From Candidatus Eiseniibacteriota bacterium (GTDB lineage: Bacteria; Eisenbacteria; RBG-16-71-46): a stretch of 64,000 nt of DNA. A program made the position numbers and the translations under genes. Shown here in pieces: positions 5,150 to 48,619 of the stretch. Within the stretch, counting starts at the first letter, position 1; the number at the start of each line of letters is the position of its first letter. The notes under the pieces are model-generated. The model had not been told where the DNA came from and did no database searches. It was given only the letters and a program-made list of their open reading frames with translations. The stretch covers positions 96,001 to 160,000 of the forward strand of contig JBGPFC010000002.1 in NCBI GenBank assembly GCA_041483195.1. The letters are read 5' to 3'.

Positions 5150-6696
5150 TCCTCTCGCTGAACGGTCCCGTCACGCGCGTCGAGCGCGTCGGGCTGGTCG
5201 CCGCGCTCGCGCTCGCCACCGCGCTCATGTGGCCGCTCCGGCACTACCTGACCGACGACACCTACATCCACCAGCAGTACGCGCGCCACCTCGCGAACGG
5301 GCAGGGGCTGGTCTTCAACGTCGGCGAGCGCGTGTACGGCTGCACCAGCCCGCTCTGGGTCGCGCTGATCGCGGACGGAATGGCGCTGGGCATCGACGGG
5401 CTGCGGGTCGCTCGCACGCTCGGGTTCCTGGCGACACTCGCATCGATCGCACTCTTCTTCCAGCTGATGCGACGCACGCTCCGCACGCCGGAGCTGCGCG
5501 CGCTCGCCACGCTCGCGTGGGCGGGGCACGCATGGATGCTGCGCTGGTCGCTCTCTGGCATGGAGACCCCGCTCGCGGTGGCGCTCGTGCTCGCGGGATT
5601 CGTCGCGTTCACCGAAGGCCTGCAGTGGGGCTCCCGTCCGGTTCGAACCGCCGCCCTCTGGTCGCTCGCCGCCCTCACGCGCCCGGAGGCCGTCTTCCTG
5701 CTCGGGCTGTGGACGGTGTTCCTGATCGTGGACACCGACAGTCGCGCCGGCCTGCGCCGCCTCGTCTTCGGTCTCGTCCCGCCGCTCCTGATCTACGGAG
5801 GATGGCTGGCCTTCTCGCGCCTCTACTTCGGGACGTTCTGGCCCAACACGCTCGAAGCCAAGGCCGCGGGTTCGGAGGGGCTCGCCTTCCAGCTCGACAA
5901 CCTGTGGCGTCAGGTCAAGATCGTCGGCGCGACCGACGGCGTGAAGGCGGCGGTGCTGATCGCGGCGCTGGTGTTCGGCGCCCGCCGGATGTGGCCGCGC
6001 CACACCACGGCGCAGCGCATGGTGCCATGGGTCTGGCTGGTCGGAGTCCCGGCGCTGTACGTGGCGCGGGGCGTGCCGGTGCTCTCGCGATACCTGTTGC
6101 CGCTGCTGCCGGTGATGGGATGGCTGGCGTGGCGCGCCGCCGAGGTCTGGTGGGTGGGAGAGGACCCATCACCGGCGCAGCGCCGGCGCGCCGTCGTGCT
6201 GGGCGTCGCGCTCGCGGCGCTCACGCTGTTCCAGAATCTGACCGTCTATCGCATGCAGGTGCTCCCGCACGTCGAGTCGTTCAGTGAGGGATTCCGCGGA
6301 TCGCTCGTGCGGTGGGGGCGCTGGTTCGGCGATCACGCGCCGCCCGGAGCGGTCATCGCGACGCCCGACATCGGCGCGATCGGATATTTCAGCAGGCATC
6401 GCGTCGTCGACCTCGCGGGCCTCGTGACGCCGCAGATGGTACCGCTGCTCAGGCAGCAGCCCGCCGAGGACGTGGTGCGCGAGCTGCGGTTCGAATCGTT
6501 CGCGCGTCCCGGTTTTCTCGTCGACCGCGCTCCGGTCGCGAACGATCTGATCGCGCGCAGCAGCTTCGCGGCGTGCCTGACGCCGCTCGGTCACGCGTCG
6601 GTTCCGAATCTCGGGATCGCGCGCCCCGGCGAGGCCGTTTACACGTTCTACCGCGTCGACTGGGCGGTCTTCGACACGCTCCGCGCGCGACGCTGA
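5146..6696 (+). CDS. Polytopic GT-C-fold membrane glycosyltransferase (AftB-like N-terminal motif)
   Basis: ATGA overlap; 'DDTYI...ARHLANGQGLVFNVGERVYGCTSPLW', 'SGMETPL', 'LTRPEA', 'VVDLAGL'; many TM segments. Confidence 0.7.
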   Translation: MILSLNGPVTRVERVGLVAALALATALMWPLRHYLTDDTYIHQQYARHLANGQGLVFNVGERVYGCTSPLWVALIADGMALGIDGLRVARTLGFLATLASIALFFQLMRRTLRTPELRALATLAWAGHAWMLRWSLSGMETPLAVALVLAGFVAFTEGLQWGSRPVRTAALWSLAALTRPEAVFLLGLWTVFLIVDTDSRAGLRRLVFGLVPPLLIYGGWLAFSRLYFGTFWPNTLEAKAAGSEGLAFQLDNLWRQVKIVGATDGVKAAVLIAALVFGARRMWPRHTTAQRMVPWVWLVGVPALYVARGVPVLSRYLLPLLPVMGWLAWRAAEVWWVGEDPSPAQRRRAVVLGVALAALTLFQNLTVYRMQVLPHVESFSEGFRGSLVRWGRWFGDHAPPGAVIATPDIGAIGYFSRHRVVDLAGLVTPQMVPLLRQQPAEDVVRELRFESFARPGFLVDRAPVANDLIARSSFAACLTPLGHASVPNLGIARPGEAVYTFYRVDWAVFDTLRARR

Positions 6697-6944: not shown

Positions 6945-7397
6945 ATGGCGTTCTACGGGACCGAAACCTACGCGATCGATCACAAGGGCCGCATCAGCGT
7001 GCCCGCATCGATGCGACGCGCGGGAACGCGCAAGAAGGCGCTCGACTCGTTCTATCTCGTCGCCGGCTTCGAAGGCTGTCTCGCCCTGTACGCGCCCGAT
7101 GACTGGGCGCGTGTCGAGGAGCGTCTCCGCCGCCTCCCGATGGGAGGCCGCAAGGGCCGCGCGTTCGCGCGCGCGTTTCTGATGAACGCAACTCCCGTGA
7201 CGGTGGACGCGCAGGGACGCATCACGATCCCACCGGCACTCGTGGTCCGTGCAGCGCTCGGCAAGGAAGCCGTCCTGCACGGACAAGTCGATCGCATCGA
7301 GATCTGGAATCCCGAGCGGCTTCGGGCGGCCGTCGCCGAGGCCGATGGCCAGCTCGAGTCGCTGGCCGACGAAGTCCTGGGTGGCGGGGACGCGTGA
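6945..7397 (+). CDS. mraZ: Division/cell-wall cluster transcriptional repressor MraZ
   Basis: 'FYG...IDHKGRISVP', 'VDAQGRITIP', 'DRIEIWNP'. Confidence 0.95.
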   Translation: MAFYGTETYAIDHKGRISVPASMRRAGTRKKALDSFYLVAGFEGCLALYAPDDWARVEERLRRLPMGGRKGRAFARAFLMNATPVTVDAQGRITIPPALVVRAALGKEAVLHGQVDRIEIWNPERLRAAVAEADGQLESLADEVLGGGDA

Positions 7398-7843
7398 TGG
7401 CGCGCGGGGCGGTGAGGCCGGCGCGCGTCCCGTTCGCCGTGAATCTCGAGCTCAGCCACGGCCGTCACGGCGCGGCGGCGCGGCTCGAGATTCACGAGCG
7501 CGGCGGCGACCGGCTCGCCCTGCTCAAGCTCAGCGGCTGGATCGACCAGGTCGCGGTGCGCCGTCTGGAAGGGACGCTCGCCGAGCTCGCGGAGCGCGGC
7601 ACGAGCCAGCTGCTCCTCGACTGTTCGCAGCTTCGTCACATCGACTACCGGCTGGTGCCGGTGCTGGTCGACGCGCTGTCGCGTTTCGAGACCCACGCCG
7701 GCGGGTTCGTGGTGTGCGGGCTCTCGCACTACCTGCGCGACCTGTTCCGCCTCGCGGGATGCGAGCCGCGGCTGCGCTGCTGGCCCAACGCGGACGAGTT
7801 GCTCGGTCCCGCCCTCGAGCCGGGCCGTGAGCGCGCGTCATGA
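7394..7843 (+). CDS. STAS-domain (anti-sigma-factor antagonist-like) protein
   Basis: 'LLKLSGWID...LLLDCSQLRHID...GGFVVCGLSHYLRDLFRLAG'; overlaps both mraZ and rsmH. Confidence 0.75.
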   Translation: MMARGAVRPARVPFAVNLELSHGRHGAAARLEIHERGGDRLALLKLSGWIDQVAVRRLEGTLAELAERGTSQLLLDCSQLRHIDYRLVPVLVDALSRFETHAGGFVVCGLSHYLRDLFRLAGCEPRLRCWPNADELLGPALEPGRERAS

Positions 7844-36311: not shown

Positions 36312-38786
36312 TCACCTCGCAGCTTCGGCAGTCGCGCGATGCAACTTGAGTGCTTTTTGCGTGGCGGGTCCCGCTCCCCGCGCCGGCTCGGTGAGCTGGC
36401 GAAGCACCACCACCGTCAGGTCGTCGAGCGGACGATCGGCGAAGGCGCGCACGGCGGCGAGCAGCGCCTCGAGCACGTCCGCCGCCCGCCTCCCGGGGCA
36501 GGCGTCCAGCACCTCGCGAACCCGGTCGGTCCCGAACAACTCGTCACCGCACTGTGCCTCGGTGAGGCCATCGGTGCAGAGCAGCAGCAGATCTCCGGCT
36601 CCGAGTTCGACCGGCACGTCGGGATAGGTGGCGTCCACGCTCACTCCGAGCAGCACGCCACCATCCGTGAGTTCCTCGAAGCGGCCGTCGCGCCGGCGAA
36701 CCAGCGGCGGGGTGAGGCCCGCGTTCGCGAGCCAGACCCGCCCCCCCCGCACCTCGATGCGCGCGCAGAGGAGTCCCATGAACTTCTCGGGTTGATCGAG
36801 GCCGACCAGCTCGCGATTGAGAACGTCCAGCAGCGCGCCCGGACTCAGCGCGCGCCGCGCTTCGTCGCGGAAGCGCGCCTGCACGCCGGCGAGCACCAGC
36901 GCGGCGGGCACACCCTTCCCGGCCGCGTCACCCACGGCAAGCGTGAAATCGCGGGGCGCGGTCTCCACGAAGTCGTAGTAGTCGCCCCCCACCGACTCGC
37001 ATGAGAGCGTGGCCGCCGCGCAGTCGAGCGTCGGATAGACCGGTGCGCGACGGGGGAGGCGGTGCGCCTGAATGGCGCCGGCCTCGCGCAGCTCGCGCTC
37101 CAGCGCGCCGTGCGAACTGGCTTCGCGCCGCAGCGCGCGATTCTCGAGCGCCACCGCGAGATGGTCGGCGAACCGCTCGAGCTCGCGCGCCTCGAGCTGT
37201 CCGAGCCATGCGCCCGCCAGCCGCCGCCCCAGCAGCAGCAACGCGCGCCGCGGAGACTCGCCGACCGGCACGATCCATCGCACGCCGCCGCGCTCCAGGG
37301 CCATGGCGAGCTCCGCGCCCCCCTCGACCTCGTCGACTCCCACCACGCCGGCGCGATCACCCAGCGCGCGCGCCAGATCGGTTCCACCCGCGGGCAGCGT
37401 CGTTTCCCCGACGTGGCCGGCATCGCGCGCGATCCCGTGCTCGAGCGCCAGCGCCGCGCAACCGTCGAGCCGCAATTCCGCGGCCAGCGTCCCGCATGCC
37501 GTCGAGAGCAGGGGCTCGAGCCCGCCGGGGTGATCCGCACCGCTTCCCACGATCGAAATCACTCCGCTGCTCGCCGGCAACCGCGCACGCAATCCGCGGA
37601 CCCATGCGCTGAGCGGGCCCGCCAGCCCCGCGACCAGCGGAACACTCGCGAGCGCCAGGCCCTCGACCTCCGCGCCCAGTTCGGCGCCGCGGTGCAGGGC
37701 GATCCATTCCCCGCCGAGATACGCGAGCGCGCCCCCCGCGCCGAGCATCAACGCGAGCGAGCCGGCGCGCAGCGCCATCCGGAAATCGAAGATGTGATGA
37801 ACCACCACCGCCCACGCGAACGAAGCCGGCACCAGCAGCGTGAGCATGACCGCCCACCGTTCGCCGGGGACGGCCGTGCCCGGGGAGAGATTGCGGATCA
37901 GGATCAGGGCCGCGAGCGGGCCGGCGCCGAGCACGGTGCCGGCCAGCGCGACGCGCAGACGCCGGCGTTCGTCGGCCGACCGCGCTCGAAAGTAGGATCG
38001 CCCGAAGAGCGCGAGCGCGACGATGAGCCCCAGCGTGAACCACACCGCGGCCGCCACCTGAAGTGCCGCGAATGCCACGTCGGCGCCCGGAAAGGCGCTC
38101 GGTCCCAGCGGCTCGAGGAGCGCGGTCGCAAACAATACCGCAGCGATTCCATAGCCCCATCGAACGCGCGTCTCGAGTCGCCCGCCCCAGCGGGCCGGTT
38201 CTGGGAACATCGCGAAGAAATGGACGAAGAGCGCCGGCAGGAATAGCGTGATGCCCGAGTACGCGGTGCGCCACACGAGCGCGAAGGCCGCCGAACGCAG
38301 CTGGGGGAGCGGCGCGATCAGCCATGCAAACGCGAGGCAGAGCAGGAAGAAGGTGCGCGTGAGCCGGTCGCGCCGCTCGCTCCAAACCAGCCCCGCGAGC
38401 AGCACGAAGCCCGAGCTCACGACCAGCAGCGCCGCGAGCATGCGGCGCTCGGAATCGGGAAGCGGCTCGGCGGCGAGCCAGACCCGATCGCGACGATCCC
38501 CCGCGCGTCGTTCGAGGAGCAGGGGCCGGCCCGGCGCGGCGTCCGCGAGCAGCTCGCGCGCGAGCCACCCTGAATCGGTGGGGCGGCCGGTCGCCGCCAG
38601 GCGGTCGCCCGGCAGTATCCCGGCCCGATCCGCCGGACTTCCGGCGATCACGGCCGCGACACGATCCGACTGGACGATCAGCCCGGTATAAGGCCGGCCG
38701 GGCACGCCAAGGGCCGAGCACGCGAGCACCGAGGCCGCGGGCAAGAGCAGCCAGGCGATCATCCGGGCCGACCATCCGCGATGCAT
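36312..38786 (-). CDS. Membrane PP2C/SpoIIE (RsbU-like) phosphatase: PDZ, multi-TM, GAF-like, SpoIIE
   Basis: PDZ 'GSPADRAGILPGD'; SpoIIE 'VGGDYYD', 'GDAAGKG', 'CTDGL', 'DDLT'; SD GGAGG. Confidence 0.9.
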   Translation of the reverse strand: MHRGWSARMIAWLLLPAASVLACSALGVPGRPYTGLIVQSDRVAAVIAGSPADRAGILPGDRLAATGRPTDSGWLARELLADAAPGRPLLLERRAGDRRDRVWLAAEPLPDSERRMLAALLVVSSGFVLLAGLVWSERRDRLTRTFFLLCLAFAWLIAPLPQLRSAAFALVWRTAYSGITLFLPALFVHFFAMFPEPARWGGRLETRVRWGYGIAAVLFATALLEPLGPSAFPGADVAFAALQVAAAVWFTLGLIVALALFGRSYFRARSADERRRLRVALAGTVLGAGPLAALILIRNLSPGTAVPGERWAVMLTLLVPASFAWAVVVHHIFDFRMALRAGSLALMLGAGGALAYLGGEWIALHRGAELGAEVEGLALASVPLVAGLAGPLSAWVRGLRARLPASSGVISIVGSGADHPGGLEPLLSTACGTLAAELRLDGCAALALEHGIARDAGHVGETTLPAGGTDLARALGDRAGVVGVDEVEGGAELAMALERGGVRWIVPVGESPRRALLLLGRRLAGAWLGQLEARELERFADHLAVALENRALRREASSHGALERELREAGAIQAHRLPRRAPVYPTLDCAAATLSCESVGGDYYDFVETAPRDFTLAVGDAAGKGVPAALVLAGVQARFRDEARRALSPGALLDVLNRELVGLDQPEKFMGLLCARIEVRGGRVWLANAGLTPPLVRRRDGRFEELTDGGVLLGVSVDATYPDVPVELGAGDLLLLCTDGLTEAQCGDELFGTDRVREVLDACPGRRAADVLEALLAAVRAFADRPLDDLTVVVLRQLTEPARGAGPATQKALKLHRATAEAAR
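36322..36349 (-). promoter_or_regulatory. Sigma28-type promoter for the 18-aa peptide gene, inside the last codons of the PP2C gene
   Basis: Minus strand TCAAG-N15-GCCGAAGC, preceded by an A-tract. Confidence 0.55.
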
Positions 38787-38815
38787 CCGTGCCTCCCGGG
38801 TCGAACGGCGGCCCG

Positions 38816-38843
38816 AGGCTAACAGGGCGGCCCCGGCTGTCAA
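38816..38843 (-). promoter_or_regulatory. Sigma70-type promoter for the PP2C gene
   Basis: Minus strand TTGACA-N16-TAGCCT with extended -10 TG. Confidence 0.55.
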
Positions 38844-38975: not shown

Positions 38976-39230
38976 ATGCTGGTCCTAACAAGGAAGTTAG
39001 GAGAAAACATTCGGATTGGTGACTCGGTGAAGATCACCGTGCTCGAAGTGCGTTCCGGGCAGGTGAAACTCGGAATCGAGGCTCCACCCGAGGTGAAAGT
39101 GCACCGGGAAGAGATTTATGCCCGCATCCAGGAAGAGAATCGGCGCGCACAGCGAACCAAGGTCGGCGGCTCCGAGCCGGCGGCCGCGCCGCGCGACAGC
39201 GAAACGAAGGACCGGCCCGCGCCCGAATGA
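38976..39230 (+). CDS. csrA: Carbon storage regulator CsrA (Asn55 / FliW-type)
   Basis: '[16 protein letters not shown]...[23 protein letters not shown]'. Confidence 0.97.
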
Positions 39231-39542: not shown

Positions 39543-39582
39543 GCGGGGCGGTCGCGGTGTCCGCGGCCGCCCCGCTTGTTAT
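39543..39582 (+). terminator. Intrinsic terminator after csrA-flgM-like
   Basis: 15-bp GC stem (39543-57 / 39561-75) followed by TTGTTAT; overlaps an extended -10 TGtTATACT (39577-85) for the next gene. Confidence 0.7.
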
Positions 39583-39611
39583 ACTGCGCGCTCCATGAGA
39601 GCCAAGTGTCG

Positions 39612-40814
39612 GTGAGGCGCGGTCGCGTGTCGGTGCTCTCCATCCCGATGGGACCGCTGAGTCGTGCGCTCATGGACGACTCGGACAGCGGCGTGGTGGT
39701 GCTCGATCCCGCGGCACGAGTCGCGAGCATCAATCCGGCCGCGCTGCGTCTGCTCGCCCTTCGTGCCTCGGACGCTCGCGGCCGCCCGCTGAGCGAGCTG
39801 CTCCGCACCGTCGTCGCGAACGACGATCTCGTAGGCGACGCGTTGCGCGCATCGCGCACCGAACGCGAGGCGGTGCTGCTCGCGCGGGATGGAAGCGAGG
39901 TCCCCGCGCTCGTCCGCAGCGTTCGGCTGGGCCGCCCGCCGTGGGTGCTGATCACGCTGCGCGATCTCACGCAGGTCCGGCGCATGCGGGAGGAGCTCCG
40001 CCGCCACGAGCGGCTCGCCACCCTGGGCCAGCTGAGCGCCGGCATCGCGCACGAGATTCGCAATCCGCTCGCGGGCATCGGCACCAGTGCGCAGGTCCTG
40101 TTGCGCCGATTCGAGCCCCGCGACGATCGGGCCAAGTTCGTGCGGGTGATTCTCGAGGAGGTCGCGAGGCTCGACCGGATCGTGACCAGCCTGCTCCAGT
40201 ACGCCCGCCCCCGGACCCCCGAGCTGCGTGCCGGCACGCTCGCGGCCTGCATCGAGCGCGTGCGGGTGCTCGCGAGCGAAACCATCGGCCAGACCGGGGT
40301 GCGGGTGGAAGTCGACGTGGCGCCCCGGCTCGGTCCGGTCTACATTGACTCAGACCTCGTCACGCAGGTGGTGCTGAACATCACGCTGAATGCCGTTCAG
40401 GCGATGCCCCAGGGTGGGACGCTCCGCTACGAGGTGCGCCGCGCGCGTCGTCGTCCGGCGCCGCGCGGGCCCGGACGACGCGCGTCGGACGCGGTGCGCC
40501 CGCCGGGGGGGGCGCGACGAGCCGTCGAGCGCGTGACCTTCCAGCAGGTGCGCGTGAGCGACACGGGGACCGGGATCCCGCGCGGCGTGCTGGCGAAGCT
40601 GTTCGATCCGTTCTTCTCGACCAAGCCCCGGGGCACCGGGCTGGGTCTCTCGATCTCGCAGACCATCATGCAGGAGCACGGTGGGACGATCGAAGTGGCG
40701 AGCCGCGAAGGGCGCGGCACCACCGTCCTGCTCAATTTCCCCGTGGAGAAGCGACATGGTGAAAGGCGACAGCTCGACGCACGTGCAGACCGCGCACACG
40801 CTACTCATCGTTGA
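39612..40814 (+). CDS. Cytoplasmic PAS sensor histidine kinase (NtrB/FleS/FlgS-like); start uncertain (39612/39648/39672)
   Basis: PAS 'SGVVVLD...INPAA', H-box 'AHEIRNPL', 'NAVQAM', 'DTGTGI', 'FFSTKPRGTGLGL'. Confidence 0.92.
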   Translation: MRRGRVSVLSIPMGPLSRALMDDSDSGVVVLDPAARVASINPAALRLLALRASDARGRPLSELLRTVVANDDLVGDALRASRTEREAVLLARDGSEVPALVRSVRLGRPPWVLITLRDLTQVRRMREELRRHERLATLGQLSAGIAHEIRNPLAGIGTSAQVLLRRFEPRDDRAKFVRVILEEVARLDRIVTSLLQYARPRTPELRAGTLAACIERVRVLASETIGQTGVRVEVDVAPRLGPVYIDSDLVTQVVLNITLNAVQAMPQGGTLRYEVRRARRRPAPRGPGRRASDAVRPPGGARRAVERVTFQQVRVSDTGTGIPRGVLAKLFDPFFSTKPRGTGLGLSISQTIMQEHGGTIEVASREGRGTTVLLNFPVEKRHGERRQLDARADRAHATHR

Positions 40815-42189
40815 CGACGAGCGTTCGCTGCGCTTCAGCATCGGGGAATGGGCGCGCGACGCGGGTTACCAGCCGGTCGAGGCCGCAGGGTGCCGCGAGG
40901 CGCTGGAACGCATGCGTGAGCAATCCGTCGATGTCGTGCTGCTCGACCTCAAGCTCGGGGACGAGGACGGCATGGAGGTGCTTCGTGATCTGCGCGCCGA
41001 GGATCCCTCGCTGCCGATCATCATGCTGACCGGGCACGGCACCATCGAGCACGCGGTGCGCGCGACGCGGCTCGGCGCATACGACTTCATGCTCAAGCCT
41101 CCCGATCTGGACCACCTGGGTGTGGTGGTGGCCCGCGCGCTCGAACACTCGCGGCTCCGCCGGGAGGTCGATCGCTTCCGCGCGACCTCTGGCCAGAATC
41201 AGCCCATGATCGGCGAGAGTCCGGGGCTCAAGCGCGTGCTCCAGCGACTCGAGAAGGCGGGCAAGAGCAGCAGCGCGACCGTCCTCATCCAGGGGGAGAC
41301 CGGGGTGGGGAAGGAGCTCATGGCGCAGTTTCTCCACGCTCACAGCCCGCGCGCCGGCGGGCCGTTCATCGAGCTCAATTGCAGCGCGATTCCCGAGCAG
41401 CTTCTCGAGAGCGAGCTCTACGGGCACGAGAAGGGCGCGTTCACCGACGCCAAGCGGTTCAAGAAGGGGCTGTTCGAACTGGCCGACGGCGGCACCCTGT
41501 TTCTCGACGAGATTGGTGAAATGGCGCCCGCGCTCCAATCGAAGCTGCTGCGAGTGCTCGAGAATCGCACCTTCCGCCGCGTGGGCGGACACGCCGACAT
41601 CACGGTCGACGTTCGGGTCGTGGCCGCGACGCACCGCGATCTCAAGCGCGCGGTCAGCGATGGAAAATTCCGGGAGGACCTCTACTTCCGGCTCAACGTC
41701 GTGCCGATCGAAATGCCTCCGTTGCGCGATCGGCAGGAGGACATCCGGGCGCTCGCGGAGCATTTCATCACGCGCTTCTGCCGCGAGCTGGGCCGCCCGG
41801 TCCTGCGACTCCACCCCGAAGCGCTCAGGGGTTTTCACGACTACGCGTGGCCTGGAAACGTTCGCGAGCTGAAGAACGTCATCGAGCGCGTGGTCCTGCT
41901 CGAGGCCGACGACGAGATCCGGCGCGAGCACCTGCCCTCCGAAATCCATCGCACGACCACGCGCGAGACCGCGGCGGGCGCGGCGGCGAGCCCGTTCCCC
42001 CCGGGGGTCGTTCGGCCGCTTGCCGAGATCGAGATGCTGGCGATCGATCACGCGCTGGTCGTGTGCGAGGGTAACAAGACCCGCGCGGCGCACCTGCTCG
42101 GCATCTCGCGCCAGACCCTGAGAACCAAGCTCAAGGAATTCGCCATCGAGGACGATGTTGAAGAGGGTGGCGAGGTGGGCCCCGAGTAG
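40756..42189 (+). CDS. Sigma54-dependent response regulator (REC, AAA+, Fis HTH)
   Basis: 'GETGVGKE', 'ESELYGHEKGAFTDA', 'LFLDEIGE', 'FREDLYFRL', 'WPGNVREL', 'GNKTRAAHLLGISRQTL'. Confidence 0.96.
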   Translation: MVKGDSSTHVQTAHTLLIVDDERSLRFSIGEWARDAGYQPVEAAGCREALERMREQSVDVVLLDLKLGDEDGMEVLRDLRAEDPSLPIIMLTGHGTIEHAVRATRLGAYDFMLKPPDLDHLGVVVARALEHSRLRREVDRFRATSGQNQPMIGESPGLKRVLQRLEKAGKSSSATVLIQGETGVGKELMAQFLHAHSPRAGGPFIELNCSAIPEQLLESELYGHEKGAFTDAKRFKKGLFELADGGTLFLDEIGEMAPALQSKLLRVLENRTFRRVGGHADITVDVRVVAATHRDLKRAVSDGKFREDLYFRLNVVPIEMPPLRDRQEDIRALAEHFITRFCRELGRPVLRLHPEALRGFHDYAWPGNVRELKNVIERVVLLEADDEIRREHLPSEIHRTTTRETAAGAAASPFPPGVVRPLAEIEMLAIDHALVVCEGNKTRAAHLLGISRQTLRTKLKEFAIEDDVEEGGEVGPE

Positions 42190-42499
42190 TTCGCAGCGCC
42201 TCTCCCTGGTCCCGCGGCTCGCGCCGATCTTCCCCCGGCGCCGACCAGGAACCGTTCGTGCGTTCTAGGCGTGCGCAACGAGGTTAGGCGGGCGGAATGC
42301 ATTTCGGAATGCAGTCGGTTCGCGCGTTTCGCCAACTCCGGAGCTGATCCACCCGCCCGGCCGGGTTCGCGCGGTTTCTCGCGCGGCGCCACAAGTCGCT
42401 CTCCCTGAACGGTATGGCCCCGGCCTCACGGGCGCATCGCCGATCCGATCCCGGGCTCGGAATGAGCGCCGGCCGCGTCGTTCGCGCCCTGCCCGAGGC

Positions 42500-42515
42500 T
42501 GGCACGCAGACTGCA
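42500..42515 (+). promoter_or_regulatory. Sigma54 (-24/-12) promoter of the REC-flhG-fliA operon
   Basis: TGGCACG-CAGA-CTGCA with exact GG-N10-GC spacing, 39 nt before ATG 42555. Confidence 0.75.
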
Positions 42516-42554
42516 ACCGGGTTTCCGCGCTGCCACCCACGGAGACCCCTTTCC

Positions 42555-42956
42555 ATGTCCCACATTCTCATCGTCGATGACGAACCCACCACCTCGTGGG
42601 CGCTCGCGGAAGGGCTGTCGGACGACGGCTTCAGCATCGACACCTTTCGCAGCGCCGAAGACGCGTGGGCCTGGCTCCAGGGTGGGCACAGCGACCTCGT
42701 CATCTCCGATCTCCGGCTGCCGGGCATGAGCGGACTCGAACTCGCTCGCAAGCTACGCCGCGGCCGCCACGCGCAACCGGTCATCATCGTGACGGCGTAC
42801 GGCACCCCGGAGACGATCCGCGACCTGCGCGGCGCGGGTGTCGCCGACTGCTTTACCAAGCCGTTCCCGATCGATCGGCTGCGTCGCTCGGTGCGCCTCG
42901 CGCTCGAGGCCGCCGCCCAGCGCGCCCGCCGGCGCCGCAAGGCCGCGGCGTGCTGA
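42555..42956 (+). CDS. Single-domain response regulator (REC)
   Basis: 'ILIVDDE', 'DLVISDLRLPGMSG', 'VTAYG', 'TKPF'. Confidence 0.9.
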   Translation: MSHILIVDDEPTTSWALAEGLSDDGFSIDTFRSAEDAWAWLQGGHSDLVISDLRLPGMSGLELARKLRRGRHAQPVIIVTAYGTPETIRDLRGAGVADCFTKPFPIDRLRRSVRLALEAAAQRARRRRKAAAC

Positions 42957-43291
42957 GCCGCCCCGCCTCGCAACGCGCGCGCGGCCTCAGGCGCGCCCCC
43001 GCGCCGGTGCGCCAGCTCGCGGCGCTCCATTCCGGCCGGGCGCGGATTCGCGCCGCGCTCGAACATTGCGCGGAGCAGGAACGCGCGGTGCTGGCCCTCA
43101 TGTTGTTCGAGCGCCTCACGCCGGCGGAAGCCGCGCAGGCGCTGGGGATGCCGATCACGGATCTGCTGCGCACCTACGACGCGCTGCTCCGCGAGCTGCG
43201 GCGCGCGCTGCGCGGGCTGAGATTCCGATCGAGGCTCACGCAGGACGGCCGCACCCGCACCGCGTCCGAAGCGCGCGTGAGGGAAGCCTGA
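42950..43291 (+). CDS. Stand-alone sigma-70 region-4-like protein resembling the FliA C-terminus
   Basis: 'EQERAVLALMLFERLTPAEAAQALG' versus FliA 'EQERLVVALYYYEHLTLKEIGRALG'. Confidence 0.7.
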   Translation: MLSRPASQRARGLRRAPAPVRQLAALHSGRARIRAALEHCAEQERAVLALMLFERLTPAEAAQALGMPITDLLRTYDALLRELRRALRGLRFRSRLTQDGRTRTASEARVREA

Positions 43292-43563
43292 TGCCGATCC
43301 GGCGGCCTCTGACCCCGAGCGCCGATCCGGCGGGTGAGATCCCGGCGACGTCGGGGGCGCGACTCGATCGCATCGACGCCGCGCTCGTTTCTCTGGGCGC
43401 GGAGCAGCATCGCCTCGAGCGCATCGGCCTCGAAATCCCACTCGCGCGCTGTCATACCCAGAAGCGCTACTGGATGTTCCTGAGGGCGTTGTTCTCGATC
43501 CCGGATGCGAAGCGCTCCACCCCGTGCGGAGGATCACCGTGGCCGAGCGCGACGATTCGCTGA
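43291..43563 (+). CDS. Hypothetical protein (90 aa)
   Basis: TGATG coupling to the upstream gene; helical core 'RLDRIDAALVSL...YWMFLRALF'. Confidence 0.6.
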   Translation: MPIRRPLTPSADPAGEIPATSGARLDRIDAALVSLGAEQHRLERIGLEIPLARCHTQKRYWMFLRALFSIPDAKRSTPCGGSPWPSATIR

Positions 43564-44462
43564 AGCCTTCGAGCCGGGCCGGCGCAAGGCGTCAGCGGCC
43601 GCCGCTGGCCGTGGTCCCCGGGACCGGCCAGCCGGCGGAGTCCGAGGACCATCCCGCGCGGTGGAGCCGCCCGCACGTGCCGATGATCGTCATCGCGAGC
43701 GGGAAGGGCGGGGTGGGCAAGAGCAACCTCTCCGCGAATCTCGCGGTCGCGCTCGGTGAGCGCGGCGCCCGCGTGCTGCTGGTGGACGCCGATTTCTCCC
43801 AGGCCAGCCTCGATCTGCTGCTCGGCCTTCATCCGCGTCACGACCTGCAGCACGTGCTGGCTGGCGAGAAGACCCTCGAGGATATCGTCGTCGAGGGGCC
43901 GTTTGGGGTGAAACTGGTTCCCGCGGCATCCGGGGCGCCCGAACTCGTCGATCTCGACGACGTGCGCCTCGAGTCCCTGCTGCGCGGCCTGTCCCAGCTC
44001 GAGGCCGACATCGACCTCGTGCTCCTCGATACCGCGTCGGGGGTCGGGCGCCAGGTGACTTCGCTCTGCCTGGCGGCCGACGAGGTCGTGGTCGTGACCA
44101 CTCCCGAGATGCCCGCCTTCGCGGATGCGTATGGCCTCATCAAGCTCCTCCAGCACCAGGGGCTCGCGCGTCCGGTGCACCTGCTCGTGAACATGGCGGG
44201 AAGCCCGGAGGAGGCGGAAGAGACCGCGCACCGCATTCGGCTCGTGGCCCGACGCTTCCTGCGCATGCAGCTCGACGTCTGGGAGCCGGTGCCGTTCGAT
44301 CTCGCCATTCCCCGCGCCGTGCGCCGCCAGGAACCCGTGCTGACCGCGTACCCGCAGTCCCCGGCGGCGGCGGCCTATCGGGCGCTTGCCGAGCGTCTCT
44401 GGACCACGCCACCGCCGACGCCGACGATCGAGATTTCACATCCGCAGCGTTTGGAAGCCTGA
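43539..44462 (+). CDS. flhG: MinD/ParA-family ATPase FlhG/FleN
   Basis: 'ASGKGGVGKS', 'VDADF', 'LVPAASG', 'DTASG', 'TTPEMPAFADAYGLIK'; directly upstream of fliA. Confidence 0.88.
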   Translation: MAERDDSLKPSSRAGARRQRPPLAVVPGTGQPAESEDHPARWSRPHVPMIVIASGKGGVGKSNLSANLAVALGERGARVLLVDADFSQASLDLLLGLHPRHDLQHVLAGEKTLEDIVVEGPFGVKLVPAASGAPELVDLDDVRLESLLRGLSQLEADIDLVLLDTASGVGRQVTSLCLAADEVVVVTTPEMPAFADAYGLIKLLQHQGLARPVHLLVNMAGSPEEAEETAHRIRLVARRFLRMQLDVWEPVPFDLAIPRAVRRQEPVLTAYPQSPAAAAYRALAERLWTTPPPTPTIEISHPQRLEA

Positions 44463-44477
44463 GAGGAGGAAGTCCCC

Positions 44478-45302
44478 ATGCCCCGTGCCGCCACCGCGTC
44501 CCCTGCACGTCCGTCCGTTTCCCTTCGCCTGGTGCCTCGCCGCGCCGCACCCGCGACAGCGCCGGGCCTCACCCCCGTGACCTACTCGAAGGACGATCTC
44601 CTCAAGCGGTTCGCGCCGCTGGTGCGTCACGTCGTCGAGCGGGTGGCCGCGACGCTGCCGCGCAACGTCGATCATGAGGATCTCTACTCGGCGGGGGTGC
44701 TCGGCCTGCTCGATGCCCACGCCAAGTTCGACACCCGCAAGGGCGTGAAGTTCGAGACCTACGCGGTGTGGCGGATCAAGGGCGCAGTCCTCGATCAGCT
44801 GCGCGCGCTCGACTGGGTGTCGCGCTCGATGCGACGCAAGGCTCGCAATCTCGACGGCATCACACGCAAGCTCGACCAGAAGCTGGGACGCGCGGCGTCC
44901 GAGGACGAGGTCGCGCGCGAGATGAAGATGACGCGTGGCGAATTCTATCGGTTGCTCGATCACGTTCGGGGAGCGGTGCTGGTCTCGCTCGACGAGAGCC
45001 GTTCGGGCGAGGAGCAGGAACCCACCACGCTCGCCGACCATCTGCCCGATCCCAACGCCGCCGACGTCGAGGCCCGGCTCGAGGAAGAGCAGACGCATCA
45101 CGTGATGCTCAAGACCCTCGATCAGCTTCCCGAGCAGGAGCGGCTGGTGGTGGCGCTCTACTACTACGAGCACCTCACGCTCAAGGAAATCGGCAGAGCC
45201 CTGGGCATCTCGGAATCGCGCGTCTCCCAGGTTCACACGCGCGCCATGATGCGGCTGCGTCTCCGGCTGCAGAAGGCCCTGGCGCAGGAGCGGGCGGCGT
45301 GA
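44478..45302 (+). CDS. fliA: FliA/WhiG-family RNA polymerase sigma28
   Basis: 'LPRNVDHEDL.SAGVLGL', 'KFETYAVWRIKGAVLDQLRALDWVSRS', 'LYYYEHLTLKEIG..LGISESRVSQVH'. Confidence 0.95.
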   Translation: MPRAATASPARPSVSLRLVPRRAAPATAPGLTPVTYSKDDLLKRFAPLVRHVVERVAATLPRNVDHEDLYSAGVLGLLDAHAKFDTRKGVKFETYAVWRIKGAVLDQLRALDWVSRSMRRKARNLDGITRKLDQKLGRAASEDEVAREMKMTRGEFYRLLDHVRGAVLVSLDESRSGEEQEPTTLADHLPDPNAADVEARLEEEQTHHVMLKTLDQLPEQERLVVALYYYEHLTLKEIGRALGISESRVSQVHTRAMMRLRLRLQKALAQERAA

Positions 45303-45700
45303 CGCAGCCGGAGACCGCGGAGCCGCTGCTGCCGCCGCCGCCCCACGAGGCGATGATCGAGCGCATGCTCGAGCACGCGCACGCGATCGAGGCGGCGGGC
45401 AAGCCCGAGCACGCGGCCGCCCTCAGGTCTTCACTCGAGGGCTGGCGGCGGGCGCAGCAGGATTGGATTGAGCGCCTCGCGCGGGCGCTCGCGGTCCACC
45501 ACGAGATCAACAACGCGCTGGTCGGCGTGCGGGGCAACGCACAGCTGCTGCTGATGGGTCCGGCGGGCAAACAGCCGGGCGTGAGAGAGCGTCTGGAGGT
45601 CGTGATCCGTGAATCCAAGCGCATCCAGGAAGCCGCCGGGAGAATTCGCGAGATCAAGGCCGCGATCGGCGGCGCGGACCCGGCCTCCCGTGCCGCCTGA
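45299..45700 (+). CDS. Stand-alone HisKA/DHp phospho-acceptor protein (no ATPase domain)
   Basis: GTGA overlap with fliA; H-box 'HHEINNALVGVRGNAQLL...RLEVV..ESKRI'. Confidence 0.7.
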   Translation: MTQPETAEPLLPPPPHEAMIERMLEHAHAIEAAGKPEHAAALRSSLEGWRRAQQDWIERLARALAVHHEINNALVGVRGNAQLLLMGPAGKQPGVRERLEVVIRESKRIQEAAGRIREIKAAIGGADPASRAA

Positions 45701-46670
45701 CGCCGGCCGGGCCTCCGGGCCCGACGCCACGAGCCGCCGGGCGGATGGCGCGACCGCGGTCTCGGGAACGCCGGGCGGCGAAGCGATCGCGCGTCGCCGC
45801 GCCTCGCGTTCGCTGTGGGCGGCATGCGAGGCGCTGCTCACGGCCGCGTCCGAGCCGCGTGCTGTGAATCGTGCGCTCGACGCGCTGCGCGTCGCGTTCG
45901 AGTGTGACGGCGTCGCGATCCACGCGCTGGGGCCGGAGGGCGCGATGGAGCCGCTGTGCGCGCGCGGAGAATGGCGTGTCGCTCCCGGCGACCTGCGCGA
46001 CTGCGTGAGCGTGCCGCTGATGCGCGGCGCGGAACGGGTCGGCGCCCTCGAGCTGCTCGCGCGGCCGGGCCAGCACTGGCGCCCGGCGCAAATCGGCCTG
46101 GTGCGAACCGCATCCGGCGCGCTGGGTGCCGCGCTCGGCGTTCGTCTCGAGCTCCAGCGCCTGCGCCACCAGCCGGGTCGTGACGGCGTCACCGGGCTGC
46201 CCGACGCGCGAGCTTTTCACGCGCGGCTTCACGAGGAACTCGCTCGCGCGCGCCGCCATGGATTGCCGCTCGCGGTCGTCATGGTCGACATCGATCGTTT
46301 TGCCGCACTCAATTCGCGCTACGGGCGCGCCGTCGGCGATGCGGTGCTCGCCGAGACGGCGCTGCTGCTGCGGCTGACCTTGCGCGAGACCGACGTGCTC
46401 GCGCGCCTCGGGGGCGATCGCTTCGGAATCGTGCTCCCGGAGTGCGACGTACCGGCCGCGGCACGCTGCGCCGAGCGGGTACGGCGCATCGTGGAGGAGC
46501 ACGAATTCGCCCGCGTCGGCCGCGTCAGCGCCTCGGCGGGCGTGGCGGTCAGTCCCCGGGACGGGATGGAACTGGTCGAGATCATGAATCGCCTCGACCA
46601 CGCGATCGCGATCGCCAAGAAGTCGGGACGCAGGCGGGTCGCCGTGGCCGGACAGACGCACACCCACTGA
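45690..46670 (+). CDS. GAF-like plus degenerate GGDEF (GGDRF) protein
   Basis: 'DGVTGLP', 'DIDRF', 'RETDVLARLGGDRF', 'AKKSGR'; start approximate. Confidence 0.85.
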   Translation: MPPDAGRASGPDATSRRADGATAVSGTPGGEAIARRRASRSLWAACEALLTAASEPRAVNRALDALRVAFECDGVAIHALGPEGAMEPLCARGEWRVAPGDLRDCVSVPLMRGAERVGALELLARPGQHWRPAQIGLVRTASGALGAALGVRLELQRLRHQPGRDGVTGLPDARAFHARLHEELARARRHGLPLAVVMVDIDRFAALNSRYGRAVGDAVLAETALLLRLTLRETDVLARLGGDRFGIVLPECDVPAAARCAERVRRIVEEHEFARVGRVSASAGVAVSPRDGMELVEIMNRLDHAIAIAKKSGRRRVAVAGQTHTH

Positions 46671-46687
46671 GAGCGGCGGAGGCCGGA

Positions 46688-48619
46688 ATGAGACCGAAGC
46701 CGCACGCGCCGGCCCACGAGCCCGGAGCCTCGGGCACGAGGGCCGCGCCGTCGCCGCCCGCGATCGTCTCGCGCAGCGGGCTCGCGGCCGCCTCGAACCC
46801 GGCTGACGTGTCGGAAGCACCCGTGGGTCTCGCCCGGGCCGGATCGGTGGGGGTCGCCGGCGACGCTCCGGCGCTCGCGTTCGGAAGCGGGGCGGATGCG
46901 CCCGGTACCCTGCCCGAGACGGAAATCGAAACGCGGGCGCGCGTGCTGGTGGTGGACGATGAGCCATCGGTCGTCGACGTGCTTCGCGAATTTCTCTCGG
47001 GTGAGGGTTACGAAGTCTCCGTGGCCTCGAGCGGGGAAGAGGCGCTCCGGCTGATTCCGGAGCTGCGGCCGGACATCATCCTGACCGACATCAATCTGCC
47101 TGGACTGTCGGGACTCGAGGTCATGCGCTTCGCGAAGAGCGTCGATCCCGAGGTCGCGGTGATCGTGGTGACCGGCTACGCGTCCGCTTCCACCGCCATC
47201 GATGCGCTCCGTCAAGGCGCGTACGACTACGTCACCAAGCCATTCGATCTCGACGACGTCCATCAAATCGTCGAGCGCGGCGTCGCGAACCGGCGCCTGA
47301 AGGCCATCAATCGCCGCCTGGTCGAGGAGCTGAGGCAGAAGAACGCGATCCTCCAGCGCCACGAACAGGAGCTGCGCGAACGCGTTCGGCTCGCGACCTG
47401 GCAGATGACCACCCTCTACGAGGTCGGCAAGGAAGTCGGCGCCAACCTCGAGCTCGCCCCGCGTCTCGCCCTCATCTGTTCCAAGGCCGCGGAATTGTCC
47501 GGCGCGCCGTCGGCGCTCGTCTACTTGAGAAATACCGAGACCGAGCGCCTTCACGTGGACGCGGCCCACGGGGTCGAGATCACGGACAGCGAGGATACCC
47601 TTCCGCACTATCTGCAGGCCGAGAGCGCGCTCGGCATCAGCGCTTCGGATCCGCGCCCGGCCCGTCGCGCGGTCGGCGACGGGGAGCCGGCGATGGAGTT
47701 GCCGTCTCTGGCCGGCCACCCGGTGCGCAACATGCTGGCGGTGCCGATGATCGCCGAGTCGCAGACCCTGGGCGTGCTGGTCCTGATGAACAAGCCGGGC
47801 GGATTCAGCGACGACGACGAGAGTTTCCTCGCCCAGTACGCCTCACAGGTCGCGATCGCCGTGCACAACTCGCAGTTGTTCGAACACACGAAGAGCCTCG
47901 ACCGCCTCAAGTCCGAATTCGTGGCGGTGGTGTCCCACGAGATCCGCACCCCCCTGACCTCGGTCAAGGGCGCCGTGGAATTGCTCGCGGACGATCGGTA
48001 CTTTCCCAACACCGAGCAGCAGACGAAGCTCCTCACCATCGCGCACGCGAATGCGGAGCGGCTGCTGGTGCTCATCAACGACATCCTGGATTTCTCGAAG
48101 CTCGAATCGGCGTCGCTGCCGATGAGCATCCAGCGCCAGCGCATCGAGCCGGTCGTCCATCAGGCGGCGCACAACCTGCGCACCATGATGGAGGAGCGCC
48201 GCATTCATCTCGAGGTGCTGCTCTCGCCCGAGATGCCCGATCTCATGCTCGACGCGAATCGAGTCGCGCAGGTCCTGACCAATCTGCTCTCGAACGCCAC
48301 CAAGTTTTCCCAGTCCGGCGGGCGCATCGAGATCACCGCGGAGCCCTGGGAGGGCGTCGTGCGGGTCGGCGTGCGCGATCACGGCGAGGGCATCGCGCCT
48401 CAGGATCTTCCGAAGCTGTTCCGCAAGTTCTCGCAGGTGGACTCTTCGGCGACGCGCAAGGCGGGTGGGACGGGACTCGGCCTGGTCATCTGCAAGGGCA
48501 TCGTCGAGCAGCACGGCGGAAAGATCTGGGTGGAGAGCACCCCGGGGCAGGGCAGCACGTTCTACTTCACGCTGCCGCTCGCCGAGCGACTCGCCGCCCC
48601 CGCGATCCCGCAGGCCTGA
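46688..48619 (+). CDS. Hybrid histidine kinase REC-GAF-HisKA-HATPase
   Basis: 'VLVVDDE...TDINLPG...KPF', 'VSHEIRTPLT', 'NLLSNATKF', 'DHGEGI', 'GTGLGL'; start uncertain (46688 or 46808). Confidence 0.93.
   Translation: MRPKPHAPAHEPGASGTRAAPSPPAIVSRSGLAAASNPADVSEAPVGLARAGSVGVAGDAPALAFGSGADAPGTLPETEIETRARVLVVDDEPSVVDVLREFLSGEGYEVSVASSGEEALRLIPELRPDIILTDINLPGLSGLEVMRFAKSVDPEVAVIVVTGYASASTAIDALRQGAYDYVTKPFDLDDVHQIVERGVANRRLKAINRRLVEELRQKNAILQRHEQELRERVRLATWQMTTLYEVGKEVGANLELAPRLALICSKAAELSGAPSALVYLRNTETERLHVDAAHGVEITDSEDTLPHYLQAESALGISASDPRPARRAVGDGEPAMELPSLAGHPVRNMLAVPMIAESQTLGVLVLMNKPGGFSDDDESFLAQYASQVAIAVHNSQLFEHTKSLDRLKSEFVAVVSHEIRTPLTSVKGAVELLADDRYFPNTEQQTKLLTIAHANAERLLVLINDILDFSKLESASLPMSIQRQRIEPVVHQAAHNLRTMMEERRIHLEVLLSPEMPDLMLDANRVAQVLTNLLSNATKFSQSGGRIEITAEPWEGVVRVGVRDHGEGIAPQDLPKLFRKFSQVDSSATRKAGGTGLGLVICKGIVEQHGGKIWVESTPGQGSTFYFTLPLAERLAAPAIPQA

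Follow-up and report, generated by a model that had tools for sequence, protein, structure and literature searches.

A free-standing sigma region-4 protein encoded behind a CheY-like receiver gene in Candidatus Eisenbacteria, and its possible role as a sigma mimic

A 113-residue protein, here called S4, was found to be the product of a genuine and conserved gene that encodes a free-standing sigma-4 domain in a 64,000-nt stretch of DNA (the window) from a member of Candidatus Eisenbacteria. By its sequence, S4 is devoid of the Ser and Gln by which sigma-28 recognizes the -35 element, yet it retains most of the hydrophobic groove on which an anti-sigma factor docks. Its constant neighbour across five families of this phylum is an upstream gene for a CheY-like receiver, and not the gene for a small hairpin protein (ORF90) that follows it in the window. 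It is proposed here, tentatively and as something plausible but short of probable, that S4 mimics sigma-4 within a partner switch under the control of the receiver, as a split counterpart of PhyR. To our knowledge, sigma mimicry that frees a sigma factor is known from one system only, that of PhyR, which concerns ECF sigmas in one bacterial class. Were the proposal true, a copy of a FliA-type sigma-4 domain co-translated with a receiver would mean that mimicry had a second origin, in another sigma group and as a modular system of two proteins. The S4 system may represent a new kind of sigma-factor control switch. The features discussed are listed in Table 1; the host is an uncultured sediment bacterium.

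Table 1. Position of S4 and of the genes and the promoter-like element around it (window coordinates).
Feature	Position	Strand	Evidence
PAS histidine kinase	39576-40814	+	Pfam HisKA, HATPase_c, PAS; synteny in 20 loci
NtrC-type sigma-54 activator	40681-42189	+	Pfam Response_reg, Sigma54_activat, HTH_8; synteny in 20 loci
Sigma-54-type promoter-like element, TGGCAC-N5-CTGCA	42500..42515	+	55 nt before the start codon of the receiver gene
CheY-like single-domain receiver, 133 aa	42555..42956	+	Pfam Response_reg, E 1.9e-26
S4, stand-alone sigma region-4 protein, 113 aa	42950..43291	+	Translation, codon-position GC, region-4-only Pfam/NCBIfam matches, profile, AF2, orthologs
ORF90, conserved helical-hairpin protein of no known family, 90 aa	43291..43563	+	Translation; AF2
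MinD/ParA-family ATPase, FlhG-like by position, start codon uncertain	43524..44462	+	Pfam ParA, AAA_31, CbiA; conserved synteny
FliA/WhiG-family sigma, module paralog	44478..45302	+	TIGR02479 at 248 bits (cut-off, 189.6); regions 2, 3 and 4 by Pfam
GAF-GGDEF diguanylate cyclase, directly downstream of fliA	45609..46670	+	Pfam GGDEF, E 1.7e-36

Conservation of the S4 gene

The S4 gene starts with GTG, which overlaps the TGA stop codon of the receiver gene, and its own TGA stop overlaps the ATG of ORF90. The GC content of its third and second codon positions (about 0.9 and 0.47, respectively) fits coding in that frame. Orthologs were recovered at E <= 0.01 from all 24 genomes of the family, 37 of 41 relatives had a match, and the gene is intact and syntenic in five families of Candidatus Eisenbacteria (f1-f5), among them lower-GC genomes of ordinary composition. 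The wider family is large, with at least 120 clusters of S4-like proteins (50% identity) at E <= 1e-10, and 136 of the best 150 matches are no longer than 140 aa. It is hidden by genome annotation, as the best label that it currently carries is 'sigma-24 family protein'. Contigs of four other DNA sequencing runs were free of differences across the S4 stretch. One low-depth contig in X5 carries a 2-nt insertion behind position 42946 at a depth of 2.49 of 8.37, which is probably an error.

Against its closest relative, S4 has a dN/dS of 0.31 and FliA and the receiver one of 0.09, values of which only the ranking of the genes was used because dS (about 0.77) is near saturation. S4 evolves more rapidly than the receiver, FlhG and FliA, with ORF90 being the only faster neighbour in the operon. 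This rapid evolution, together with the short length of S4, a Pfam score under threshold and the frequency of long spurious ORFs in the host genome, would suit either a non-functional relic of an incomplete fliA duplication or a chance ORF of GC-rich DNA. Such an origin is nevertheless very unlikely, as the gene is intact and syntenic across five families in which lower-GC genomes are included, its dN/dS is below 1, its codon-position signature fits coding, its start and stop overlaps are conserved, its clusters are numerous and divergent, and its predicted fold is confident. The same conservation rules against a 'decaying fragment', an outcome that the original prediction had named as refuting it.

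Fold, descent and retained surfaces of S4

Residues 37-67 of S4 were aligned by BLASTP with residues 214-244 of the local FliA, with 15 of 31 identical (E 2e-6). Pfam recognizes region 4 alone, and this under its threshold (Sigma70_r4_2, E 5.7e-4, 19.9 bits where 25.7 are required), while TIGR02479, the cut-off of which is 189.6 bits, gives S4 a score of 15.9. Regions 2 and 3, which a group 3 (FliA/sigma-28) member of the sigma-70 family would have, region 2 for core binding and -10 recognition, gave no match with Pfam or NCBIfam. A profile of the S4 family, built from 27 members and searched against the PDB, found its best matches in the sigma-4 domains of WhiG and FliA (6pfj, 7.9e-10; 9wsm, 4.5e-9; 6pmi, 9.6e-9), those to ECF sigma-4 being weaker (1.7e-5 for the isolated SigD sigma-4, 3vep, and 1e-4 or worse for full-length ECF sigmas). 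When the window's own S4 was left out of the HMM, the closest other sigma-4 domain in the genome was that of the adjacent FliA (44.5 bits, with the next sigma at 30.5), the gene of which sits 1.2 kb downstream.

AlphaFold2 predicts a four-helix sigma-4 fold (helices 18-38, 42-53, 58-65 and 69-87) with a mean pLDDT of 81.8, rising to 90-97 over residues 21-90; the residues preceding region 4 are Arg/Ala-rich and of low pLDDT. The top Foldseek matches of this model are all sigma-4 domains, at weak E-values (>= 0.014). As modelled, the region 4 fold is present in S4, comprising 4.1 and the helix-turn-helix of 4.2. S4 stems from the neighbouring FliA-type sigma, and the simplest route is a duplication after which regions 2 and 3 were lost.

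The available text of PMC12784957 describes sigma-28 of P. aeruginosa as reading the -35 element via S224 and Q228, and as docking FlgM through L187, I191, L200, A203, L204, Y206 and L210. According to the same text, the motility defect of L187R and L204R is minimal, so that L187 and L204 are dispensable for DNA or RNAP contacts (PMC12784957). These positions were mapped through an HMM alignment onto S4 (18 orthologs) and onto the FliA of the module (17). Both -35 readers are kept by the module FliA (S in 17/17, Q in 17/17). In S4 the pair is replaced, by T70 and R74 in the window and, across the 18 orthologs, by R10/G3/T2/A2/H1 at position 70 and R15/A2/Q1 at position 74. The recognition helix ISESRVSQ as a whole hardly changes among the module FliA proteins from 17 relatives, whereas the matching S4 columns vary, with a consensus of 0.17-0.56 as compared with 0.94 for the same columns of FliA in the same genomes. 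Five of the seven FlgM-contacting positions keep their character in S4: positions 33, 37, 50 and 56 are hydrophobic in all 18 orthologs and position 49 stays small (A in 15, S in 2, V in 1). Position 46 varies, and position 52, a Tyr in FliA, is L in 14, V in 2, I in 1 and Y in 1.

The original prediction had described a 113-aa ORF encoding a stand-alone FliA region-4 paralog, without regions 2 and 3, in which the -35 recognition helix had been replaced. The translation agrees with this, the paralogy is borne out by BLASTP, Pfam, the profile and the HMM, and the exchange of the S/Q readers matches the proposed change in the helix.

The receiver-led gene unit and its surroundings

The genes for the receiver, S4 and ORF90 make up a unit of three, in which each stop codon overlaps the start of the next gene, upstream of those for the MinD/FlhG-like ATPase, FliA and the GGDEF cyclase. 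The receiver start is backed by 18 orthologs; D9, E10, T80 and K102 are invariant, and D52 is conserved in at least 90%. The receiver stop and the S4 start overlap by 1, 4 or 7 nt in 18 of 19 loci, and the S4 stop overlaps the start of ORF90 in 16 of 19, with the remainder lying within 2 nt. A programmed frameshift joining the receiver to S4 was considered and dropped, given this spread of overlap lengths among orthologs and the lack of a visible slippery site in the window sequence. In each of the five families in which S4 was seen, a receiver gene immediately precedes it. A search with the receiver alignment beyond the Eisenbacteria orthologs returned generic CheY-like genes only.

AlphaFold2 models ORF90 as a hairpin of two helices (residues 21-45 and 48-69, pLDDT 86.7), and its alignment contains eleven invariant columns. 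It occurs in 55 of 59 genomes of family f1 and in 5 of 6 of f3, and S4 is present without it in families f4, f5 and f2, so that ORF90 cannot be a universal partner of S4. Neither Pfam nor NCBIfam matched ORF90, Foldseek returned generic hairpins only, and the clusters returned by the Protein Atlas were all small and unnamed, their recognition being too low to be of use. A profile search of PDB sequences yielded nothing at E <= 1 (best 1.3), and hence no likeness to NepR or to an anti-sigma factor of solved structure.

The promoter-like element upstream of the receiver gene has one mismatch to TGGCAC-N5-TTGCW. As the number of sigma-54-type matches across the window is not above chance, its support comes from conservation, the same element recurring in 15 of 19 orthologous loci, where it lies at -52 to -57. 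It is presumably driven by the adjacent kinase/NtrC pair. Between 42555 and 45302 all genes share one strand, the sole gap being the 16 nt before fliA, and no sigma-70-like promoter or terminator was found within 42100-45800. Judged from this layout, the genes may be co-transcribed, which is consistent with the fliA operon in which S4 had originally been placed. Further along, the ATPase scores under the cut-offs of the NCBIfam MinD models, and a GGDEF cyclase stands beside fliA in those related loci that reach that far and in most of the phylum's families looked at. The FliA of the module is a non-flagellar paralog found throughout the phylum, with 143 of 151 genomes over the cut-off versus 54 of 151 for FlhA. 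Canonical sigma-28 promoters gave no strict and four loose matches in the genome.

Possible roles of S4 and comparison with known systems

S4 had originally been proposed as a candidate decoy that titrates a FlgM-like anti-sigma factor left unexported where the flagellar secretion system is missing. The retention of part of the FlgM-docking groove is in keeping with this, as is the host genome (96.84% complete), in which models for FlhA (PF00771), flagellin and FliG all gave no match, the FlhA model likewise matching 0/3 in the genus. However, FlgM was not detected in that genome either, whether by Pfam (PF04316, 0 matches) or by a profile built from five FlgM-like genes of flagellated relatives (best E 0.022, away from the S4 locus), and ORF90 is not FlgM-like (hhalign probability 0.27% against this profile). 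The proposed rationale fares no better, as by tally the module is present in 17 of 18 FlhA-positive and 38 of 41 FlhA-negative genomes of the family, and the flagellated relatives with S4 carry FlgM-like genes and a second, flagellar FliA beside flhA (locus L046). Weak matches to the FlgM model, seen in 5 of 61 family genomes with one over the cut-off, fall in such relatives, among them the FlhA-positive G004 and G145. For FlgM itself the decoy is therefore largely refuted, and little credence is left to it.

Two further roles were considered. S4 could be a DNA-binding helix-turn-helix regulator with a specificity unlike that of FliA, acting by itself or serving the receiver as an output domain with a gene of its own, in a split NarL/FixJ-like arrangement. 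The predicted helix-turn-helix is intact and confident, Arg occupies the sigma-28 base-reader positions in 10/18 and 15/18 orthologs, the tails are Arg-rich, the S4 profile reaches LuxR-type output domains (DevR/DosR, 9.8e-5; FixJ, 0.43), and an upstream receiver gene with a stop/start overlap is what a split response regulator would be expected to look like. However, the DNA-facing helix positions vary freely among S4 orthologs while those of FliA are fixed in the same genomes, R74 is not retained in families f5 and f2, and Arg makes up about one-fifth of S4 in any case, in a genome of 70% GC. The profile is also some four orders of magnitude nearer to the sigma-4 of FliA/WhiG than to LuxR-type domains, and S4 evolves faster than the receiver, FlhG and FliA. 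On balance, a role in DNA binding is regarded as possible but unlikely. Sigma-4 is the flap-binding domain of sigma factors, and S4, in which the sigma-4 fold is kept and the region 4.1/4.2 core is largely shared with FliA, might instead compete with full-length sigmas for the RNAP beta-flap, an alternative already listed in the original prediction, or bind the FliA paralog directly, thereby inhibiting or modulating holoenzyme formation. A constitutive competitor would hit the housekeeping sigma too, and dedicated protein partners are suggested by the tight coupling of the S4 gene to that of the receiver and, within this order, to ORF90; this role is considered improbable.

Under the preferred reading, that of a receiver-controlled sigma-4 mimic, expression of S4 would be driven from the predicted sigma-54-type promoter under the adjacent kinase/NtrC pair, and its translation would be coupled to that of the upstream receiver and, in this order of Candidatus Eisenbacteria, to that of ORF90 downstream. 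The phosphorylation state of the receiver would then decide whether S4 is free to bind its partner, a factor otherwise seated on sigma-4 of the FliA paralog, for which the hairpin ORF90 is the candidate in this lineage. The net effect would be a tuning of FliA activity, in a split analogue of PhyR-NepR-EcfG for a group 3 sigma. The binding steps, the part played by phosphorylation and the direction of the effect on FliA are all inferred, while the gene, its fold and paralogy, the loss of the reader residues, the gene order with its overlaps and the conserved promoter element are taken from the data above.

Several observations count against such a switch. ORF90 resembles no known anti-sigma factor; S4 is without the sigma-2-like half that PhyR has; the retained hydrophobic positions could reflect fold stability and not a binding groove; and most orthologs carry Arg where the two readers used to be, which would also fit contact with DNA. 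No fusion of receiver and S4 was found in a search for longer forms, which is weak evidence, and Response_reg was found in none of the 17 larger S4 matches scanned. A complex prediction for receiver, ORF90 and S4, with S4 as the partner, 18-row alignments per chain and controls not run, gave a score of 0.01 (mark, 0.32), which speaks neither for nor against binding.

In its most specific form, the proposal would be that Candidatus Eisenbacteria possess a split, PhyR-like switch for a group 3 sigma, in which the CheY-like receiver gates a free sigma-4 mimic that trades places with the FliA paralog on a new hairpin anti-sigma factor, ORF90, the whole being sigma-54-driven and possibly cross-wired to c-di-GMP through the adjacent cyclase. 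This full version is considered doubtful; if true, it would mean that sigma mimicry had been invented independently, beyond the ECF/Alphaproteobacteria paradigm. The S4 system would also offer a handle on what the phylum-wide, flagellum-independent FliA paralog of Eisenbacteria controls, and on sigma-28-type regulation where FlgM export is absent.

Among known systems, PhyR-NepR-EcfG of the Alphaproteobacteria provides a close parallel to the arrangement proposed. In the available text of PMC4551977, PhyR is described as a sigma-like domain joined to a receiver, which switches partners with the small anti-sigma factor NepR, phosphorylation freeing the sigma mimic to take the anti-sigma. The analogy with PhyR had already been drawn in the original prediction, and it gains from the finding of a receiver gene directly upstream of S4 and overlapping its start. 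In both cases a degenerate sigma domain, which does not itself drive transcription, is paired with a receiver and has a sigma factor and a small helical protein nearby; the S4 profile matches the sigma-like domains of PhyR (2lfw, 7.2e-5; 3t0y, 8.4e-5; 3n0r, 7.8e-4), and the NCBIfam PhyR model matches S4 at E 0.041. However, PhyR has sigma-2-like and sigma-4-like halves fused to a C-terminal receiver, whereas S4 is sigma-4 only and a polypeptide of its own, encoded downstream of the receiver. The sigma mimicked here would be of group 3 (FliA/WhiG) and not an ECF sigma, ORF90 has no detectable similarity to NepR, and the phylum is not the same.

The link to FlgM/sigma-28 is that FlgM covers a sigma-4 domain of which S4 is a paralog, most of the contact positions keeping their character; the differences are that this genome has no match to FlgM or to the flagellar export gate and that its adjacent FliA is non-flagellar. 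A non-flagellar sigma of the sigma-28 family with c-di-GMP as the signal is described, for Actinomycetota, in the available text of PMC8325347 on RsiG-(c-di-GMP)-WhiG, where RsiG is a small antiparallel helical anti-sigma factor contacting sigma-2 and sigma-4 of WhiG. In the present system, fliA is followed directly by a conserved GGDEF cyclase gene, ORF90 is predicted to form a helical hairpin, and the S4 profile finds its best PDB match in WhiG. The RsiG motif, E(X)3S(X)2R(X)3Q(X)3D, was however not seen in ORF90 by eye, no RsiG match was returned by the PDB sequence search, and RsiG systems have neither a sigma-4-only protein nor a receiver. The NarL/FixJ (LuxR-type) regulators, finally, likewise combine a receiver with a small four-helix HTH domain that is structurally related to sigma-4, and the S4 profile weakly matches the output domains of DevR and FixJ. 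Pfam GerE gave no match to S4 at E <= 1, and in contrast to these regulators, receiver and S4 are encoded by separate genes and S4 stands much nearer to the sigma-4 domain of FliA/WhiG.

A sigma region-4 protein beside FliA

Translation of the open reading frame upheld the predicted 113-aa protein (S4), whose GTG start lies inside the final codons of the upstream CheY-like receiver gene (GTGCTGA; upstream stop 42954-42956) and whose stop overlaps by two bases the ATG of the following gene, which encodes a 90-aa helical-hairpin protein (ORF90). As the surrounding DNA is 70% GC, with numerous spurious open reading frames, codon-position GC was checked; over 43020-43230 the S4 frame gave about 0.9 at the third position and about 0.47 at the second, as in the genes on either side. 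Orthologs were found by genome search in 24/24 genomes of the same family (f1), and matches at E <= 0.01 in 37 of 41 relatives, some of the weaker ones being FliA's own sigma-4. Among 20 fetched loci, S4 was detected by tblastn in 18 and in the remaining two by genome search at E <= 0.01 (G008) or by HMM (G038). The S4 stretch was also identical in contigs of four other sediment sequencing runs. When the S4 profile was run against all 1.84 billion cluster representatives, at least 120 clusters matched at E <= 1e-10, and 136 of the best 150 were 140 aa or shorter. Four library proteins of 374-781 aa (P0049, P0116, P0135 and P0156), with four to seven tandem sigma-4/HTH repeats, also score against this profile. 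Against the nearest relative, dN/dS was 0.31 for S4, 0.09 for FliA and for the receiver, 0.17 for the FlhG-like ATPase and 0.41 for ORF90, values that are meaningful as a ranking only because dS was about 0.77, near saturation.

Features of the window discussed in the text
Feature	Position	Strand	Description
STAS-domain protein	7394-7843		anti-anti-sigma type fold
PP2C/SpoIIE phosphatase	36312-38843	-	membrane-anchored
CsrA	38976-39230		
Sigma-54-type promoter element	42500-42515	+	TGGCAC-N5-CTGCA, 55 nt 5' of receiver start
Receiver	42555-42956	+	CheY-like
S4	42950-43291	+	113 aa, GTG start, TGA stop
ORF90	43291-43563	+	90 aa, no known family
FliA	44478-45302	+	
GAF-GGDEF cyclase and receiver-GAF-histidine kinase	45609-48619		

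The original prediction, that S4 is a stand-alone region-4 relative of the local FliA, was confirmed. BLASTP aligned the two proteins (15/31 identical, E 2e-6), and Pfam found region 4 alone, sub-threshold, so that regions 2 and 3 are indeed absent. The single sequence best matched the region-4 ends of ECF sigmas in NCBIfam, and relatives are labelled 'sigma24 family protein' in one public source. With a 27-member family profile, the best solved structures were the sigma-4 domains of WhiG (6pfj, 7.9e-10), FliA (9wsm, 4.5e-9; 6pmi, 9.6e-9; 1rp3, 1e-7) and SigF; ECF sigma-4 was weaker (isolated SigD sigma-4, 3vep, 1.7e-5), and full-length ECF sigmas and PhyR scored 1e-4 or worse. An HMM built from 17 orthologs, leaving out the window's own sequence, ranked S4 (103 bits) above the adjacent FliA (44.5 bits, 3.6e-11) and the next sigma (30.5 bits) in a six-frame translation of the whole genome. 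In the AlphaFold2 model, residues 18-87 form four sigma-4 helices (pLDDT 90-97), for which the top Foldseek matches were sigma-4 domains, at E >= 0.014 for a very small fold. An origin of S4 by fliA duplication is consistent with its place between the receiver and FliA genes.

In a study of P. aeruginosa sigma-28 (PMC12784957, 2026), base-specific -35 contacts are made by S224 and Q228, and FlgM docks on sigma-4 at L187, I191, L200, A203, L204, Y206 and L210, with L187R and L204R causing only a minimal motility defect. A shift of 5 between the paper's numbering and that of the deposited chain was assumed, since it places each of the ten named residues on the correct letter. On this mapping, which covered 18 S4 orthologs and 17 FliA proteins encoded alongside them, FliA carried S and Q at the two reader positions in 17/17 each, whereas S4 carried R10/G3/T2/A2/H1 and R15/A2/Q1. 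The recognition helix, claimed to be altered in S4, proved variable (column consensus 0.17-0.56, against 0.94 for the FliA proteins of those genomes). Docking positions 33, 37, 50 and 56 were hydrophobic in 18/18 orthologs, position 49 remained small (A 15, S 2, V 1), position 46 varied, and position 52, Tyr in FliA, was L 14, V 2, I 1 and Y 1. Such a residue pattern is that expected for a domain that no longer reads the FliA -35 element and keeps a protein-docking groove; folding itself may, however, require these hydrophobic residues.

Gene neighbourhood and predicted control

Gene order was constant in the 20 fetched loci: PP2C phosphatase (opposite strand), CsrA, histidine kinase, NtrC-type activator, receiver, S4, ORF90, MinD/FlhG-like ATPase, FliA, GGDEF, and receiver-GAF-kinase. 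The phosphatase and CsrA genes form the upstream cluster edge in most related loci. The STAS-domain gene lies about 35 kb from S4, just upstream of mraW and the dcw (cell-division/murein) cluster. The true receiver start is 42555, not 42414, as the same N-terminus occurs in 18 orthologs. In the ortholog alignment D9, E10, T80 and K102 were invariant and D52 was at least 90% conserved; locus L019 was omitted from this alignment and from those for complex prediction. In L019 (G015) and L026 (G016) several genes of the string are split over frames (the L019 receiver, for example, has 78 aa), probably reflecting assembly indels in these few-contig assemblies and not pseudogenes.

A sigma-54-type element, near-matches to which are no less frequent in the window than chance predicts, directly follows the kinase/NtrC pair and recurs at -52 to -57 in 15/19 orthologous loci, and neither a sigma-70-like promoter nor a terminator was found in 42100-45800. 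Its conservation implies putative control of the fliA-containing string by the adjacent kinase/NtrC pair, a tier comparable to FleSR/FlrBC in flagellar hierarchies. The receiver stop and S4 start overlap by 1, 4 or 7 nt in 18/19 loci, the exception being an assembly with frameshifts, and the S4 stop and ORF90 start overlap in 16/19, the other three being at most 2 nt apart, a pattern suggesting coupled translation and fixed stoichiometry. In nearly all of the families surveyed, fliA is followed by the cyclase and the kinase, which hints at a c-di-GMP connection to this sigma factor.

For ORF90, no family was matched in Pfam or NCBIfam, and Foldseek, PDB sequence search and Atlas returned nothing specific. 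The model is a confident two-helix hairpin (pLDDT 86.7), with 11 invariant columns (P18, L35, E38, R41, L42, R44, G46, C54, R59, W61, F63). ORF90 was present in 62 of 151 sampled genomes of the phylum (f1 55/59; f3 5/6, counting the unpublished genome G026; one marginal match elsewhere), being otherwise limited to two Candidatus Eisenbacteria families and always situated between S4 and the FlhG-like gene.

Distribution of the module and its FliA

Across the 151 phylum genomes, FliA-family genes exceeded the curated cut-off in 143 and FlhA was found in 54, including 18/59 of f1 and 0/3 of the window's genus. Flagellated members have two FliA genes; in G004, for example, the copy adjoining flhA (L046) shares 36% identity with the window's FliA, and the copy within the S4 module (L047) 74%. 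The window's FliA belongs to a paralog that is near phylum-wide, with flagellar genes present or absent. A strict search of its own genome for the canonical sigma-28 promoter (TAAA-N14-16-GCCGATA) gave no match.

Gene order runs receiver-S4-ORF90-FlhG-FliA in f1 and f3, receiver-S4-FliA in f4 and f5, receiver-FliA in f12 and f18, and FlhG-FliA in f7, f10 and f11. In f2, a 106-aa S4-like gene, closer to FliA ('YYYEEL'), is preceded by another CheY-like gene and a long ORF (L045 of G027, 4475-6451), apart from FliA, which sits beside flhA in G027. As the middle of the cluster differs between families, the constant companion of S4 is the upstream-adjacent receiver gene and not ORF90.

Possible roles of S4

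It had been proposed that S4 is a decoy for FlgM in a lineage lacking the flagellar export apparatus. Models for FlhA, flagellin, FliG and FlgM had no match in the window's own genome (96.84% complete). Because the FlgM model has little power in this lineage (E <= 0.01 in 5/61 family genomes, one over the cut-off), five FlgM-like ORFs of relatives were aligned and the genome was searched anew; the best match (E 0.022) lay on another contig, and ORF90 matched this profile with an hhalign probability of 0.27%. The genome therefore offers no FlgM to decoy. Furthermore, combining two tables, the module occurs in 17/18 FlhA-positive and 38/41 FlhA-negative f1 genomes, so that its presence does not depend on flagella and is not a response to the loss of an export apparatus. 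The decoy role is very improbable, and so is S4 as a dead remnant.

The favoured but tentative reading is that S4 is a sigma-4 mimic under receiver control. The phosphorylation state of the receiver would set the availability of S4, which would compete against the FliA paralog's own sigma-4 for a regulator that binds this domain, ORF90 being the local candidate. A DNA-binding regulator or split response regulator is a somewhat less likely alternative; it draws on the Arg that most orthologs carry at the two sites where FliA has its reader residues, which could also suit an HTH that had acquired a new, G-rich specificity. Competition at the RNAP flap, or direct binding of FliA, appears improbable.

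Sigma mimicry as a concept is already known. In the titles and abstract openings of literature on sigma mimicry, Eisenbacteria/FliA, sigma-28 without flagella and truncated sigmas, neither a free-standing FliA-type sigma-4 protein nor its pairing with a receiver was found. PhyR-NepR-EcfG (PMC4551977) would have a split analogue in the proposed receiver-gated S4 mimic, which would also echo RsiG-WhiG (PMC8325347), given the cyclase conserved beside fliA.
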